A DNA stretch of 64,000 bases from an uncultured Bacilli bacterium (GTDB lineage: Bacteria; Bacillota_I; Bacilli_A; RF39; UBA660). A program made the position numbers and the translations under genes. The notes beneath the pieces are model-generated. The model did not search any database, was not told the DNA's origin, and worked only from the letters and a program-made list of their open reading frames with translations. Below are positions 2,322-51,477 of the stretch, piece after piece. The stretch spans positions 13,216-77,215 of the forward strand of contig CAKOYV010000001.1 in NCBI GenBank assembly GCA_934131005.1. Direction: 5' to 3'. How positions within the stretch are numbered: position 1 is the first letter of the stretch; each line of letters begins with the position of its first letter.

Positions 2322-4907
2322 TTATCTAGCATATTTATTTATAACTTCCAAACAACTACCATCATTTTTCTTCTTAACAACTATTTTTTTATCTATTCTT
2401 GAAATAAGTTCATCAACATGAGAAATAATTCCTACTAGCTTATCATTATCAACTAAATCACTAAGCGTATTTATAGCTTGATTAAGAGCATCCTGATCTA
2501 AAGAGCCAAAGCCTTCATCAATAAATAAACAATCAACCTTAATTCCTCCAGCATACATACTTATAACATCAGATAATCCAAGTGCTAGTGCTAAAGAAGC
2601 CGTAAACTTCTCACCTCCTGATAAAGTAGACACTTCTCTTACTCGTCCAGTATAGGCATCATTTACTGAAAAATCTAAACCAACTTTCCCACGAAGTGAC
2701 AAATTATCCATCTTAACTAACTCATACCTACCATCAGTCATTTTAACCAATCTTTTATTAGCTTCTCTTAAAACATTAGTTAAATAATAAGATTGAACAT
2801 AATTCTCAAAAGTCATTCTCATATGCCCTGTAAGAGCTCCGTTAGCCGTATCACTAATTCGCCTCTTCATCATCAATTCTTCGAAAACTTCTTCATACTT
2901 ACAATTATATTCAACTATAGTCCGAATACTATCTTCTAACCTTAAAACAAAAGCACTAGAATCAATATACTTCTTATCAATAGAATTATACTGCTTATCT
3001 ATCTCTAAAGCAATTTCTCTCTCATGACTAACATCAACAACACAGCTATCCCCTACTTCTTCTTCCAACAAAGAAATAGTTGTTGAATAATTCATAACCT
3101 GCTTATCATATTCTTGAACCTTTTTCTGTAATTTTTTCAACTTCAAAGAATCAACAACCTTCTCATCATAGGAAGTAGCATTAGTATCATACTCTAAATA
3201 TAACTTTTCTAATTTTTGATTACCAATATCAATATTTTTTCTAAGATTATCTAACTCTTTTTTATAAACTTCAATAACTTCCAAAAGAGCTTGTTTTTGG
3301 GAAGTCAACTCTATCTTCAAACTAGATAAATCATTATATTCTTCCTCTAATTTATCTCTATCACTAACTATCTTTAATTCCCTATCCAAATATAACTTGC
3401 CATGATCCCTAACATCTTCTAGACTTAAATTAAGTTCATCTATTTCTTCCTTCAAAGTATCAATATGCATAATAATACTATCTTTATTTCTAGCATACTC
3501 TAAAACTTCATTTCTTTTTAAATTAATATCTTCCTTGGTATAACTATCAATAGGCTTAACAGCTAACTTAGGATGCCTAACTGAACCACAAACTAAGCAA
3601 GCTTCTCCTTCTTTTAAATTTTCTGCTAAAAGATATGCTTCATTCAAATAAAATGCCTCTTCCATCAATACCTCTTCTTTAACCGAAGCATCATAACAAG
3701 CTATTACTTCTTTTAATCTCACTGTCTCATCATCAATCATCTTCATCTTTTTCTCATATGTTTTAATCTTATCTAACTTATCCCGAACCAAATTAACCTC
3801 ATCATTTAACTTTTTAATTAACTCCGGATACCTCTCTAATCTCTCAAAAGATTCCTTATTCAAAGAAATTTTCTTCTCTAATTTTTTCAAATCTAACATA
3901 GCATCATCAAGCTTAGCTGTTAAATTCTTAACACTCCCCTCATCCTTTTCTAATAAAGTTCTAACATTTCTAACTTCCGGCACAACATTCAAATTATAAT
4001 CTAAAATTTCTCGGTCTAAACAAACAGATGAATAACCATTCTTTAATTTAGTTAAACATTCTCTTGTATCATGCAATTTAATAATCTTTTCATTCATCTT
4101 CTCAACATTTTCAAGATAAATAGCCATTTCTTTTTTCTTATTATGTAGCCCAGTTCTCTTACTTTCTAACCTACCTAGCGTCTCCTTCTCTAACTCAAGT
4201 CTCTTATTAAGAGTATCTATAACATCATCATTAGTTAAATTCTTGCAATCCAAATCTGTTATTTTTCCCTTTTCCTTATCTAGAAGTAGTTTTATCTGAT
4301 TATATCGCACCTCACACTCACGGCAATCATTTTTTAACCTAAGCATAATATTACTATAAATATCCGTTGCAAATATTTTTCTAAAAATAGAAGTTCTCTC
4401 TTCTGAAGAAGCCATCAAAAACTTTGTAAACTCTCCCTGCGATAACATCGAAATTTGACAAAATTGTTTATAATCTAGACCTAATAGCTCTTCTAAATAA
4501 CTACTAACATCACCAGGTTTAACTAGTTTGCGAGAATCTACTTCCATAAAAGCACTAGCAGGCTCTCTAACAAAACCAACGCCTCTTTTCTTTTTTCTCA
4601 TATATTCAGGTGATCTTCTAACACAATAAAGTTTATTATTATGATAAAATTCTAATTCTACATAAGTTAAAACATTCGCTTTAGCAAAATCACTACGTAG
4701 TGAATTAACTTTCCTACTCTCAAGCGAAGTGCGTCCATATAAAGCAAAACAAATAGCATCAAAAATAGTTGACTTACCACTTCCCGTAGGTCCAGTTATT
4801 AATAATAAACCATTATCAATATCATATTTTGAAAAATCTATTACCGTCTTTTCTCTAAAAGCTAAAAAAGCTTGCATTGTTAACTTTTTAACTCTCACAT
4901 TTATCAT
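2322..4907 (-). CDS. sbcC: DNA repair exonuclease SbcC (Rad50-like ATPase)
   Basis: 861 aa. Walker A GPTGSGKST, a long coiled-coil centre with a CxxC hook (CLVCGS), ABC signature LSGGEKF and Walker B LFIDEGFGSLD. The start overlaps the sbcD stop. Confidence 0.9.
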   Translation of the reverse strand: MINVRVKKLTMQAFLAFREKTVIDFSKYDIDNGLLLITGPTGSGKSTIFDAICFALYGRTSLESRKVNSLRSDFAKANVLTYVELEFYHNNKLYCVRRSPEYMRKKKRGVGFVREPASAFMEVDSRKLVKPGDVSSYLEELLGLDYKQFCQISMLSQGEFTKFLMASSEERTSIFRKIFATDIYSNIMLRLKNDCRECEVRYNQIKLLLDKEKGKITDLDCKNLTNDDVIDTLNKRLELEKETLGRLESKRTGLHNKKKEMAIYLENVEKMNEKIIKLHDTRECLTKLKNGYSSVCLDREILDYNLNVVPEVRNVRTLLEKDEGSVKNLTAKLDDAMLDLKKLEKKISLNKESFERLERYPELIKKLNDEVNLVRDKLDKIKTYEKKMKMIDDETVRLKEVIACYDASVKEEVLMEEAFYLNEAYLLAENLKEGEACLVCGSVRHPKLAVKPIDSYTKEDINLKRNEVLEYARNKDSIIMHIDTLKEEIDELNLSLEDVRDHGKLYLDRELKIVSDRDKLEEEYNDLSSLKIELTSQKQALLEVIEVYKKELDNLRKNIDIGNQKLEKLYLEYDTNATSYDEKVVDSLKLKKLQKKVQEYDKQVMNYSTTISLLEEEVGDSCVVDVSHEREIALEIDKQYNSIDKKYIDSSAFVLRLEDSIRTIVEYNCKYEEVFEELMMKRRISDTANGALTGHMRMTFENYVQSYYLTNVLREANKRLVKMTDGRYELVKMDNLSLRGKVGLDFSVNDAYTGRVREVSTLSGGEKFTASLALALGLSDVISMYAGGIKVDCLFIDEGFGSLDQDALNQAINTLSDLVDNDKLVGIISHVDELISRIDKKIVVKKKNDGSCLEVINKYAR

Positions 4908-47482: not shown

Positions 47483-48460
47483 CTAACTTGTAGATATTTC
47501 CATAGGATAGTCCTCTGTACCTACTCCTAAGTATTTGAGCCCAGACTTGAGAGTCACTATTGGACGAAGGGCCCTGCTATTGCTGCTCTCACGAAATGAA
47601 GAGTTGCTATAGTAATACATGTCGCTGTTGTACACGGAGTCGTCCGAGGAGCCCAAGGAGTCGATCAAACATCCACCCCAGCTATAGGTAGTCGTGGATT
47701 TATAGCCGTAAAAGCGTGACGCTATCCAATATAAAGATGATAAACCTTTCACATTAGTAGCTTTTAATGTACCTATTGCATTTTTTACTAAATCATAGTC
47801 TTTTTGATATAGTTTGTCTCCTCCTCCTTGACTTTCTACTGGATTACAACTTCCTCCTGTTGAACAAGTCCATGGTGCTGGTTTAGTAAATTTAGATGTA
47901 TCTGTTATATATTTTGTTTGACCATTATAACCAAAATATCTCGAGCCTTTCGTATAAGTACTATTCTCATATTGACTAGCTAAAACATTCAAATATCCAA
48001 CTAAATTTTGATACCCTGTTTTTCCGCTAAAATATACTTCTGTCGTTGATGTATGCGCACTTATAACATCAACCGTACCATCGCTATTTAGGCTTATTAC
48101 TCGCCATAAATTTAATTCTTGCGGATTAATTGTCTGAGTACTGCTATATCCTGTTTTTGAGGTATCTGTTGTATATGATGATTTGGTCGGAGTCATTTTG
48201 ACATAATCGCCTACGGCTAAGGTATCTTTTTTAGTTAAACATACGTAACCATTTGGACAAGTTGTACTATTATTAATTTTAGTATTTAATTCATCAATAG
48301 CTCCTTGTACATCACCACTAGTTAGAGTACTATTACTATTATTATAAAAGACAGTATTAGATTTATATTTAGTTGCTGCTGCTACTGATATGCCAGTTAA
48401 TAATATTCCTAAAATAATACCATAAACTATTTTATAATTATAACTCTTCTTTTCTTTCAT
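47483..48460 (-). CDS. DGR target protein 1 (signal-anchored, C-terminal variable domain)
   Basis: 325 aa. The start overlaps the RT stop. It is highly similar to ORF 50509..51477 and to the C-terminus of the 2275-aa protein, except in the last roughly 60 residues (YWIASRFYGYKSTTTYSWGGCLIDS...ALRPIVTLKSG), which the TR-related GC-rich segment encodes. Confidence 0.8.
   Translation of the reverse strand: MKEKKSYNYKIVYGIILGILLTGISVAAATKYKSNTVFYNNSNSTLTSGDVQGAIDELNTKINNSTTCPNGYVCLTKKDTLAVGDYVKMTPTKSSYTTDTSKTGYSSTQTINPQELNLWRVISLNSDGTVDVISAHTSTTEVYFSGKTGYQNLVGYLNVLASQYENSTYTKGSRYFGYNGQTKYITDTSKFTKPAPWTCSTGGSCNPVESQGGGDKLYQKDYDLVKNAIGTLKATNVKGLSSLYWIASRFYGYKSTTTYSWGGCLIDSLGSSDDSVYNSDMYYYSNSSFRESSNSRALRPIVTLKSGLKYLGVGTEDYPMEISTS
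47562..47713 (-). repeat. DGR variable region VR1
   Basis: GC-rich island in an AT-rich gene. It aligns with the TR, sharing anchors CTTCGTCCA, TCCACGACT, ATC.AC.TCC and GGCTC. Most differences fall at TR adenines. Confidence 0.75.
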
Positions 48461-49406
48461 TTAATTTACCTCCCCTGGTTATATTTTTATAATTAATATA
48501 ACTAGATAAATAACTATTTAAATTTATTTTACCAGTCTCATATAAATATTTTTTATATTTAAATCTTCTAAAAGAATTTCTATATTTAGAAAATTTATTA
48601 TATTTATTTCTTCCAAGAAATATAATATTATTAGTATTTTTATATAATCTAGTTTTAGAATTTAATTCTAAATCTTGACTAACTAGAAATTCTTTTATTT
48701 TTTCTAAACAATATTTTAAATATTGTTTAGAAGGATGAAGTAGGATAAAATAATCTTGATATCTTACATAATATTTTATTTTTAATTCTTCTTTAATATA
48801 ATGATCCATTTCATTCAAATAAAAGATTCCTAATATTTGGCTAGTCATAAACCCTATACTAAGAGTAGTATCACTATCTAATATTTTAAATATTATATCA
48901 ATAGCATCTTTATCTTTTATTTTCCTTTGTAATTTTTTTTTTAAGATATCTATATTAATACTAGCGAAATATGCTTTTATATCACACTTTAAAAGATAGT
49001 AACTATTATATTTTTTATTTAATATACCTCCATATTTATAATATAAATCTAGAGCATATTTTGTTCCTTTATTAGGTCTAGATGCACAATTAGCATCTAT
49101 TAAACAAGGTATAAGTGCCTCATATAATATATATCTACTTACTAAATAATTCACTAACTTATCATACATATTTTGACTAACAATTCTTCTTTTCTTAGAA
49201 TCATAAATATAAAATACATTGTATTTACCAACTTGATAAGTTTTATTTTTCAAATCATGATAAGCTCTACTAATATAGATAGCTTTATAATTAATAAAGT
49301 TATTTACTTTATTTTTATTCTTAGTATTTCTACACATTTCATCAAAGCACTTCATTATATTTTCAAATTTATATATATTTTTATATAAATTATTTTTTCG
49401 TCTCAT
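48438..49406 (-). CDS. DGR-type reverse transcriptase with a non-canonical catalytic box YQDY
   Basis: 322 aa. RT motifs RRIVSQNMYDKLV, SRPNKGTKYAL and LKCDIKAYFASI. The DGR-specific motif SIGFMTSQILGIFYLNEMDHY is present. Motif C reads YYVRYQDYFILL, where YxDD is expected. Confidence 0.85.
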   Translation of the reverse strand: MRRKNNLYKNIYKFENIMKCFDEMCRNTKNKNKVNNFINYKAIYISRAYHDLKNKTYQVGKYNVFYIYDSKKRRIVSQNMYDKLVNYLVSRYILYEALIPCLIDANCASRPNKGTKYALDLYYKYGGILNKKYNSYYLLKCDIKAYFASINIDILKKKLQRKIKDKDAIDIIFKILDSDTTLSIGFMTSQILGIFYLNEMDHYIKEELKIKYYVRYQDYFILLHPSKQYLKYCLEKIKEFLVSQDLELNSKTRLYKNTNNIIFLGRNKYNKFSKYRNSFRRFKYKKYLYETGKINLNSYLSSYINYKNITRGGKLNERKEEL

Positions 49407-49537: not shown

Positions 49538-49658
49538 CTGGACGAAGGACATTGTTGTTGTTGTTCAAAGAGCCCGAGGAGTTGATATAACGTCCGTTCC
49601 AGTTATAGTTAGTCGTGGAGTTATAGTTAGTCGTGGAGTTATAGTTATAATAGTGTAC
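49538..49658 (-). repeat. DGR template repeat (TR)
   Basis: Noncoding segment between avd and the RT. In the VR frame it reads TAT TAT AAC TAT AAC TCC ACG ACT AAC TAT AAC TCC ACG ACT AAC TAT AAC TGG AAC GGA CGT TAT ATC AAC TCC TCG GGC TCT TTG AAC AAC AAC AAC AAT GTC CTT CGT CCA. It is AAC-rich, as is typical of TRs. Confidence 0.8.
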
Positions 49659-49679: not shown

Positions 49680-50020
49680 CTATACAGATGACTTTCGCCA
49701 TTTTATTACATATCTTAATAAATAATCTAAACTCTCCCCAAATTTTAAATATCTTTTAGAATTAATAATATGTTTGTTATAACAAACATTTATTAAATAA
49801 TCTAAATATTTAATATAAGAAATTAGTTTATCCTGAATATCAATTCTTTTCTCTAAATTAAAAGTTGTATTAGCTTCATAACTAATCTTTATCATTTGAT
49901 AAGAAGTAAACATATTTCTTTTTTTAATTCTATCTCTTTATGAGGAAAATTAGTTAAATATTTATCAAAATTATCAGTTAATTTTTTTACTAACTCTATT
50001 ACATAAAACTTATCTTTCAT
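49680..50020 (-). CDS. avd: Accessory variability determinant (Avd), split by a frameshift at an A7 run
   Basis: The ATG at 50020 overlaps the upstream stop and opens MKDKFYVIELVKKLTDNFDKYLTNFPHKEIELKK, the FPK-E-type first helix pair of Avd/23S-IVS four-helix-bundle proteins. That frame ends shortly after the A7 run at 49919..49925. The -1 frame continues RNMFTSYQMIKISYEANTT...FGESLDYLLRYVIKWRKSSV (ORF 49680..49913). Combined length is about 112 aa. Confidence 0.7.
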
Positions 50021-50431
50021 ATAATAAATTCTCTACTTCTTCTAATTTAGTATTATCTTTTAAAAGATATTTCTTTATTTTATCTATCCTATTTATTATA
50101 TCTATATAATTATTAGCTTTTATTAAAATATTTTTATAATTATTTTTATTTTTATAATTTACTTTATCAACCTCCTCATAATTATGAACTTTATCTATAA
50201 TAATATAATTTATATTTCTATTTTCTAGTTTAGATATTATTTTATTATAAGAGACAATAGGAAAACCACATGATTTATTATTAGCAGGCACATTTCTAAT
50301 TTTATATCCAAACAAATAAGAAATTATATCAGCATCATCATTATAACATTCATAAAAAGTTCCTTTTTTAATAATAAAACATAATTAGGAAATAATTCTT
50401 TTAAATTATTAACCATATTTATTACTGCCAT
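50010..50431 (-). CDS. MutS-domain-I-like DGR accessory protein, split by a frameshift at A_AAA_AAG
   Basis: The ATG at 50431 opens MAVINMVNNLKELFPNYVLLLKK. The -1 frame continues GTFYECYNDDADIISYLFGYKIRNVPANNKSCGFPIVSYNKIISKLENRNINYIIIDK. The joined sequence is colinear with MutS domain I (LLFFRMGDFYELFYDDA...MAGIPYHA...YLAKLV...VAICEQ). Confidence 0.65.
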
Positions 50432-50465
50432 ATTTTCATTATTCCTTTCTTTAATTTTTTTGCCC

Positions 50466-50496
50466 ATCAGGTAACACCCTTAGGCTGTTACCTGAT
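50466..50496 (-). other. Perfect 11-bp hairpin 3' of target gene 2
   Basis: atcaggtaaca-cccttaggc-tgttacctgat lies 13 nt after the stop codon. No T-tract follows it. Confidence 0.55.
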
Positions 50497-50508: not shown

Positions 50509-51477
50509 CTAACTTGTAGATATTTCCATAGGATAGTCCTCTGTACCTACCCCTGAGTATTTGAGCCCAGACTTGAGAGTCACTATTGGACGAAGGGCAT
50601 TATCGATGCTGTACTCGTCAAACTCAGAGTCGTCATAGGTATAAAAGTCGTCGTTGAGGTCCAAGGAGCCCGAGGAGTCGATACTACGCCCATACCAGCT
50701 ATAGTAAGACGTGGAGTCATAGTAATAACCACGTGTCGCTATCCAATAATAAGATGATGAACCATTCACATTAGTGGCTTTTAATGTACCTATTGCATTA
50801 TTTACTAAATCATAGTCTTTTTGATATAGTTCGTCTCCTCCTCCTTGACTTTCTACTGGATTACAACTTTCTCCTGTTGAACAAGTCCATGGTTCTTGAT
50901 TAGTAAATTTAGATGTATCTGTTATATATTCTGTTTGACCATTATAACCAAAATATCTTGAGCCTTTCGTATAAGTACTATTCTCATATTGACTAGCTAA
51001 AACATTCAAATATCCAACTAAATTTTGATACCCTGTTTTTCCTCTAAACCATACTTTTGTCGTTGATGTATGTGCACTTATAAGATCAACCGTACCATCG
51101 CTATTTAGGCTTATTACTCGCCATAAATTTAATTCTTGCGGATTAATTGTTTGCCTATTGCTATATCCTGTTTTTGAGGTATCGGTTGTATATGTTGATT
51201 TCGTTGGTGTCATTTTAACATAATCGCCTACATCTAAAGTGTTTTTCTTTTTCAGTTTTAAACATACAAGCTTTTTAGGGCATTCTTTATTTTTATCTTT
51301 ATACAATTCAACTAAAGCATCTTGCACATTAGTAGATTTAAGTCCACTATTAGTATTATCATAAGTAAGATCACTACCACTACCAACATAAGTAACAGCA
51401 TAAACAGTAGTAATAGAAATAAAAATACCTATAAATAAACCTATTAATATTTTATAATTCTTCTTTTTCATAAACAT
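50509..51477 (-). CDS. DGR target protein 2 (signal-anchored, C-terminal variable domain)
   Basis: 322 aa and a paralog of target 1. The variable tail is YYWIATRGYYYDSTSYYSWYGRSIDSSGSLDLNDDFYTYDDSEFDEYSIDNALRPIVTLKSG. Confidence 0.8.
   Translation of the reverse strand: MFMKKKNYKILIGLFIGIFISITTVYAVTYVGSGSDLTYDNTNSGLKSTNVQDALVELYKDKNKECPKKLVCLKLKKKNTLDVGDYVKMTPTKSTYTTDTSKTGYSNRQTINPQELNLWRVISLNSDGTVDLISAHTSTTKVWFRGKTGYQNLVGYLNVLASQYENSTYTKGSRYFGYNGQTEYITDTSKFTNQEPWTCSTGESCNPVESQGGGDELYQKDYDLVNNAIGTLKATNVNGSSSYYWIATRGYYYDSTSYYSWYGRSIDSSGSLDLNDDFYTYDDSEFDEYSIDNALRPIVTLKSGLKYSGVGTEDYPMEISTS
50589..50731 (-). repeat. DGR variable region VR2
   Basis: GC-rich island that aligns to the TR. In my hand alignment of the colinear 72 nt, 11 of 15 mismatches fall at TR adenines. 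Confidence 0.75.

Follow-up and report, generated by a model that had tools for sequence, protein, structure and literature searches.

Wu et al. 2018 (Nucleic Acids Res 46:11, PMC5758913) described the DGRs that contain MSL as Architecture D, where MSL and avd are found together. The cassette described here was found on the minus strand, at 47.4-51.5 kb of a window of 64,000 nucleotides, i.e. the whole stretch of DNA that was analysed, from an uncultured Bacilli bacterium. It belongs to this class. Like the Architecture D DGRs (PMC5758913), it includes a small MutS-like gene, an avd, a TR, an RT and flanking targets with C-terminal VRs. Unlike the working members of that architecture, it carries frameshifted msl and avd genes, an RT reading YQDY and a truncated TR, and it is a fossil.

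Two other described systems are close to this locus. With the DGR of Bordetella phage BPP-1 (bRT-Avd, PDB 8ub7), it shares a matching RT, a helical accessory gene of Avd size that immediately precedes the TR and, in an intact sister lineage of the same species, A-specific TR-to-VR differences. In contrast to BPP-1, which displays a YMDD motif and no MSL gene, the window has a Tyr in place of the second Asp and an avd lying in two frames. The programmed -1 sites of dnaX and of IS elements (A_AAA_AAG) are resembled as well, as both genes present an in-phase A_AAA_AAR beyond which the protein continues in the -1 frame. However, the arrangement of the window, unlike those sites, is not conserved and is devoid of a stimulatory structure. 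Moreover, its msl heptamer is a deletion by-product and its avd heptamer is also found in single-ORF alleles. Taken together, the split avd is very probably a genuine, fixed pseudogene lesion in a wholly decayed, inactive MSL-type DGR, a case of ordinary gene decay.

The genome holding the window is a 22-contig MAG of 1.24 Mb with 27.6% GC, and the features of the cassette are given in Table 1. The same genome contains a second, complete DGR with this architecture (G000 C13:6754-11397, also delimited as C13:9494-11397). It comprises a 742-aa target, a 155-aa msl, a 119-aa avd and a 376-aa RT with YMDD, all of them intact.

Table 1. Features of the decayed DGR cassette, in window coordinates.
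Feature	Position	Strand	Description
Target gene 1	47483-48460	-	carries VR1; ORF intact
VR1	47561-47712	-	full length; not colinear with the present TR
DGR reverse transcriptase	48438-49406	-	ORF intact; active-site motif YQDY
RT codon 219	48750-48752	-	TAT (Tyr) vs GAT (Asp) in the intact lineage; second Asp of YxDD
TR	49539-49653	-	45-nt internal deletion, junction within about 49551-49565; 18-nt tandem duplication
avd 3' fragment	49680-49913	-	77-aa ORF; internal ATG start = native Met37 codon
Frame-breaking lesion in avd	49914	-	single T vs TT in intact alleles (GAAATTATG to GAAATATG)
A7 run in avd	49919-49925	-	Lys-Lys codons, in phase A_AAA_AAA; same in intact and split alleles
avd 5' fragment	49892-50020	-	42-aa ORF: 36 native Avd residues to ELKKEI, then an out-of-frame tail
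msl 3' fragment	50010-50315	-	native frame resumes from the A6 run
msl 5' fragment (MutS domain I-like accessory gene)	50324-50467	-	47-aa product
A6 run in msl	50364-50369	-	A_AAA_AAG, born from the lost T of an Ile codon
Target gene 2	50509-51477	-	carries VR2; ORF intact
VR2	50587-50730	-	full length; not colinear with the present TR

The sequence-only reading from which this analysis started had described avd as a gene in two pieces related by a -1 shift, and such an arrangement is indeed present on the minus strand. The ATG at 50020 opens the zero frame, which reads MKDKFYVIELVKKLTDNFDKYLTNFPHKEIELKKEICLLLIK and finishes with ...HKEIELKKEICLLLIK before its stop at 49892, while the remaining part of Avd (RNMFTSYQ...KWRKSSV) is encoded in the -1 frame, which is open from about 49940 and ends with a stop at 49680. 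The tt-AAAAAAA-g run announced at 49919-49925 is also there, in phase as A_AAA_AAA. It falls in the overlap between both frames, and avd thus displays an in-phase slippery heptamer where a frame change could join its two pieces. An alternative code with TGA read as Trp cannot rescue the gene, a TAA standing directly after the TGA. The coupling of avd to msl through an ATGA was not retrieved, as the msl stop is a TAA at 50012-50010 and the two genes overlap by 11 nt.

The position and size of the window candidate fit Avd. The fused Avd gives a weak match to NCBIfam DivGenRetAVD across the junction (residues 8-99, E 0.008, far below the cut-off) and has no match in Pfam. Its homologues score 28-39 bits on the Pfam family bAvd (PF22296), just under the 40-bit cut-off, and the paralogue of the second DGR reaches 44.4 bits. 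As a search of the Avd family profile against PDB sequences returned no Avd match, the identity of the protein rests on these weak HMM matches, the bAvd scores of its relatives and the position of the gene.

A protein search with the fused Avd retrieved 59 homologues, most of them single ORFs of 99-123 aa, with the 113-aa ones being 95-96% identical to the query. Intact 113-aa alleles are carried by nine contigs of a sister lineage (L021, L032-L039), obtained in several projects and showing about 97.5-98% DNA identity to the window. Comparison with these alleles displaces the break point from the A7 run, where it had been placed, since they contain the identical run plus an extra T 5 nt downstream. 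Thus, the stretch TTAAAAAAAG is identical in two intact contigs (L021, L032), in the split contigs L022-L031 and in the window, whereas the following site reads TTAAAAAAAGAAATTATGTTT in the intact contigs and TTAAAAAAAGAAAT-ATGTTT in the window and all split contigs. The extra T at 49914 was found in nine of nine intact-allele contigs. As the A7 run is unchanged in both states and a T is missing at 49914, the avd lesion is the loss of one T of a TT, and contraction of the A7 run, also considered as the lesion, is excluded by the alignment. Distant relatives (G003, G014, G011) read GA(A/G)ATTATG at the same place and have an intact 114-aa avd, accompanied in G003 and G014 by an intact msl.

Because the T was lost 5 nt past the A7 run, the zero frame of the window is still native through ...ELKKEI. 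The trans-frame peptide ELKKRNMF, put forward as a signature of the restored protein, is consequently not ancestral. Indeed, the intact 113-aa alleles (P0001, P0002, P0060, P0061) read ...HKEIELKKEIMFTSYQ..., i.e. ELKKEIMF, and ELKKRNMF is the product expected from a slip at the A7 run. This run is a Lys-Lys codon pair that stands by chance 5 nt upstream of the lesion.

The fused Msl is recognized across its junction by Pfam MutS_I (41.8 bits, cut-off 20.6), and an intact 140-aa Msl with MutS_I (PF01624) is encoded by L033 and L034. At the break, the alignment displays TTATTAAAAATAGGA (L021, L034) or ...AAAAATTGG... (L002-L004, L033) in intact sequences, against TTATTAAAAAAGGA in the window. 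The gene has lost the T of an ATA/ATT Ile codon adjoining an A5 run (AAAAATAGG to AAAAAAGG), and this loss created both the A6 run and the A_AAA_AAG heptamer. The view that one kind of site was hit in two adjacent genes has to be abandoned, the avd lesion being located in a TT dinucleotide and the msl lesion in an Ile codon beside A5. The alignments thus indicate that avd and msl were not broken by the same event at the same kind of site.

Two further observations concern msl. A variant of the 47-aa fragment, P0067, found on one 700-nt contig, has its zero-frame ATG changed into an Ile codon. When read natively, the change affects the initial base of the codon for Glu in GTFYE, the conserved Phe-x-Glu motif of MutS domain I, and the variant, coming from a single contig, is compatible with a relaxed constraint on msl. 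In the intact-avd lineage, the 805-kb contig L021 (ENA ERZ28753254 contig_6384) carries at 2492-3508 an IS with an rve-family transposase directly upstream of an msl remnant, whose homology begins only at ...ATGTTTTATTATTAAAAATAGG, while avd, RT (YQDD) and TR are intact there. The msl of this contig appears to have been independently knocked out by the IS insertion.

The RT is identified by Pfam RVT_1 (43.3 bits), and its best match among PDB sequences is the bRT of BPP-1 (8ub7_A, E 2.2e-16, residues 2-285). A search of genome contigs with the RT returned distant relatives alone, with at most 53% identity. At the active site, YYVRYQDYFILL is common to the window and all split contigs, whereas the intact lineage has YQDD (T>G at 48752). 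In the alignment with 8ub7_A, Tyr219 stands opposite the second D of YMDD, and the catalytic YxDD motif is therefore not intact in the window, although the ORF remains open over its full length despite D219Y. Because both YxDD aspartates are required for reverse transcriptase catalysis, the RT of the window is most likely catalytically dead through this substitution.

An RT in two pieces was also observed elsewhere. In the orthologous DGR of another species of the same genus (L002:2580-3445, genome G014), the RT is distributed over two ORFs, one of 74 aa and the other of at least 210 aa. The apparent break, of the -1 type and read from the assembled sequence alone, lies in an A-rich Lys/Arg stretch, gat-cta-aaa-aga-gaa-gga-tag, where the window has ...tct-aag-aaa-aga-aga-att....

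The TR is also damaged. It is deprived of 45 nt that are found in both VRs of the window and in the TRs of L021, L033, L034 and L037, and it contains an 18-nt tandem duplication (ACTATAACTCCACGACTA twice, at 49628-49645 and 49610-49627). With 45 nt missing and 18 nt extra, it is not colinear with the VRs. The duplication is missing from L028 and L031, otherwise near-identical contigs of the split lineage, and this absence indicates that it is recent and polymorphic. As neither the YxDD motif nor the TR-VR colinearity is preserved, the window copy is best called a DGR remnant.

The VRs of the two lineages do not behave in the same way. VR1 is identical in the split-lineage contigs spanning it (L022, L023, L024, L026), and so is VR2 in those spanning it (L022-L030). 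Because both VRs keep their full ancestral length, mutagenic retrohoming from the present TR has probably not occurred since the 45-nt deletion. In the intact lineage, L034 shows 22 mismatches between VR2 and TR, 21 of them at TR adenines, so that the A-specific difference expected of a DGR is found in the sister lineage. Between L034 and L021, there are also extensive differences in VR2, the flanks being conserved. From these comparisons, the intact allele looks like a working DGR, whereas the VRs of the split allele are frozen.

Clustered differences among split-lineage contigs are few and confined to 48026-48067 and 51043-51084, two homologous positions of the paralogous targets where one paralogue takes the bases of the other in different samples. 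These clusters could correspond to gene conversion between paralogues or to mixing by the assembler.

The four lesions travel together. All split contigs reaching the RT and TR sites carry both the change from YQDD to YQDY and the 45-nt TR deletion, whereas the intact-avd contigs reaching these sites display Asp219 (L021, L033, L034, L037), a full-length TR and an intact msl (L033, L034). The avd, msl, RT and TR lesions are completely linked. The split state was found in one near-clonal lineage only, and avd and msl present zero differences among the split-lineage contigs compared. Among the readings initially proposed, parallel inactivation is the one borne out, by the four linked lesions and the invariant VRs.

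Under this scenario of decay, the ancestral cassette would have been an ordinary MSL-type DGR ordered target2 - msl - avd - TR - RT - target1, encoding a 113-aa Avd (...HKEIELKKEIMFTSYQ...) in one ORF together with a Msl of 140 aa. Along the branch of the window lineage, avd would have lost one T from the TT of GAAATTATG and msl one T from the Ile codon of AAAAATAGG, Tyr would have replaced the second catalytic Asp in the YQDD motif of the RT, and the TR would have lost 45 nt. The 18-nt duplication would have been gained later by the TR, in part of the population.

Several other explanations of the split genes have to be considered. An error of sequencing or assembly, with indels under-called in this assembly, could be evoked as the source is a 22-contig MAG, and both a systematic under-calling of homopolymers and a generic error breaking conserved genes at A-runs had been envisaged. 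However, the exact 42-aa product of the avd 5' piece occurs on 107 contigs, that of the 3' piece on 36 as the 77-aa version (P0031) and on 67 as a 71-aa version, and the exact 47-aa msl 5' product on 57. The 77-aa piece is found on at least 24 contigs of diverse origin (MERR22 scaffolds, Hadza SPAdes nodes, k141 MEGAHIT contigs), and identity to the window is 99.3-100%, along as much as 6.2 kb, in 10 split contigs that derive from at least three independent short-read projects. The same DNA is thus recovered across projects and assemblers, with exact split products on more than 100 contigs, whereas assemblies of the same kind from the intact lineage do show the extra T. The A-runs of the genome were also surveyed on either strand (3455 A6, 1713 A7 and 437 A8 runs, about 5,650 of at least six). 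A frame closing while the -1 frame opens was met at 0.35% of the A6 and 0.23% of the A7 runs, against 0.16% of random positions, which is no meaningful excess of -1 breaks. With a looser threshold, 35 candidates were obtained, but pieces of a single recognizable protein are joined at the two DGR sites only, the other candidates being ordinary gene junctions or non-coding shadows. Independent assemblies and the A-run survey thus rule out a sequencing error, whose probability is practically nil.

A more elaborate proposal is that programmed or leaky -1 frameshifting, or transcriptional slippage, takes place at A_AAA_AAA in avd and A_AAA_AAG in msl, yielding some Avd (through ELKKRNMF) and some Msl (through LLKKGTFY) and acting as a shared dimmer on the DGR. 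In its favour, slippery heptamers are in phase within both rescue windows, and the split allele predominates in the population. When every single-base deletion of the intact genes was simulated under a uniform model, a rescuing A_AAA_AAR was left in phase by 16.5% of the deletions in avd and 0.7% in msl, which gives a joint chance of about 0.001 for both (0.165 x 0.007). When deletions were placed at random in 743 long ORFs of this genome, an in-phase rescuing heptamer remained in about 4% of cases per gene. The coincidence of heptamers in avd and msl is not fully explained, but a path in msl going through a T-to-A change and then a contraction from A7 to A6 would make the outcome mutationally likely. 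Against a shared switch, neither lesion is a change in run length, and the A7 run, unchanged in intact alleles, was not shaped for slippage. The two-frame layout is not conserved either, close and distant homologues being single ORFs. The RNA folds of the 75 nt from each heptamer are no better than those of shuffled sequences (z 0.19 for avd and 1.36 for msl), providing no stimulatory structure, and no GGAGG-like motif was detected on reading the sequence upstream of both heptamers. The genome encodes tRNA-Lys CUU alongside tRNA-Lys UUU, which is unfavourable to slippage as, in E. coli dnaX, the cognate AAG reader lowers it at A_AAA_AAG. In addition, the same haplotype combines YQDY, a truncated TR and invariant VRs, so that no DGR output is left to regulate. 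Such a switch is thus very unlikely. A historical variant, in which the two T losses were leaky alleles with a small fraction of ribosomes or transcripts still making Avd and Msl, mutagenesis being turned down before the RT and TR lesions ended it, deserves equally little credence. A reversible phase variation at the DNA level, switching the genes on and off by slipped-strand mispairing, would account for intact and split states both existing in the species. However, the length of the A7 run does not vary among the contigs examined (at least 20), and the frame is set by a T in a TT dinucleotide, outside any repeat tract, in a haplotype-linked manner. Indeed, the intact state always belongs to the other haplotype, which is distinguished by about 8-10 linked SNPs in avd and msl in addition to the differences in RT and TR, and no contig of the split background has the T restored. 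Phase variation is therefore extremely improbable, and gene decay is retained as the origin of the split avd.

The exact pieces of the dead allele were recovered on about 100 contigs, against about nine for the intact allele, and it is the inactivated lineage that seems to prevail in this species among the human-gut metagenomes sampled.

The candidate recoding event does not hold up, and this locus very probably does not represent a frameshift switch of DGRs. What it offers is one uncultured gut species with two alleles of the same MSL-type DGR, one active-looking and the other dead through four lesions, with the dead allele being by far the more often assembled (about 100 vs 9 contigs). This pair of live and dead alleles constitutes a natural comparison for the fate of DGR targets and of the host lineage after diversification stops.
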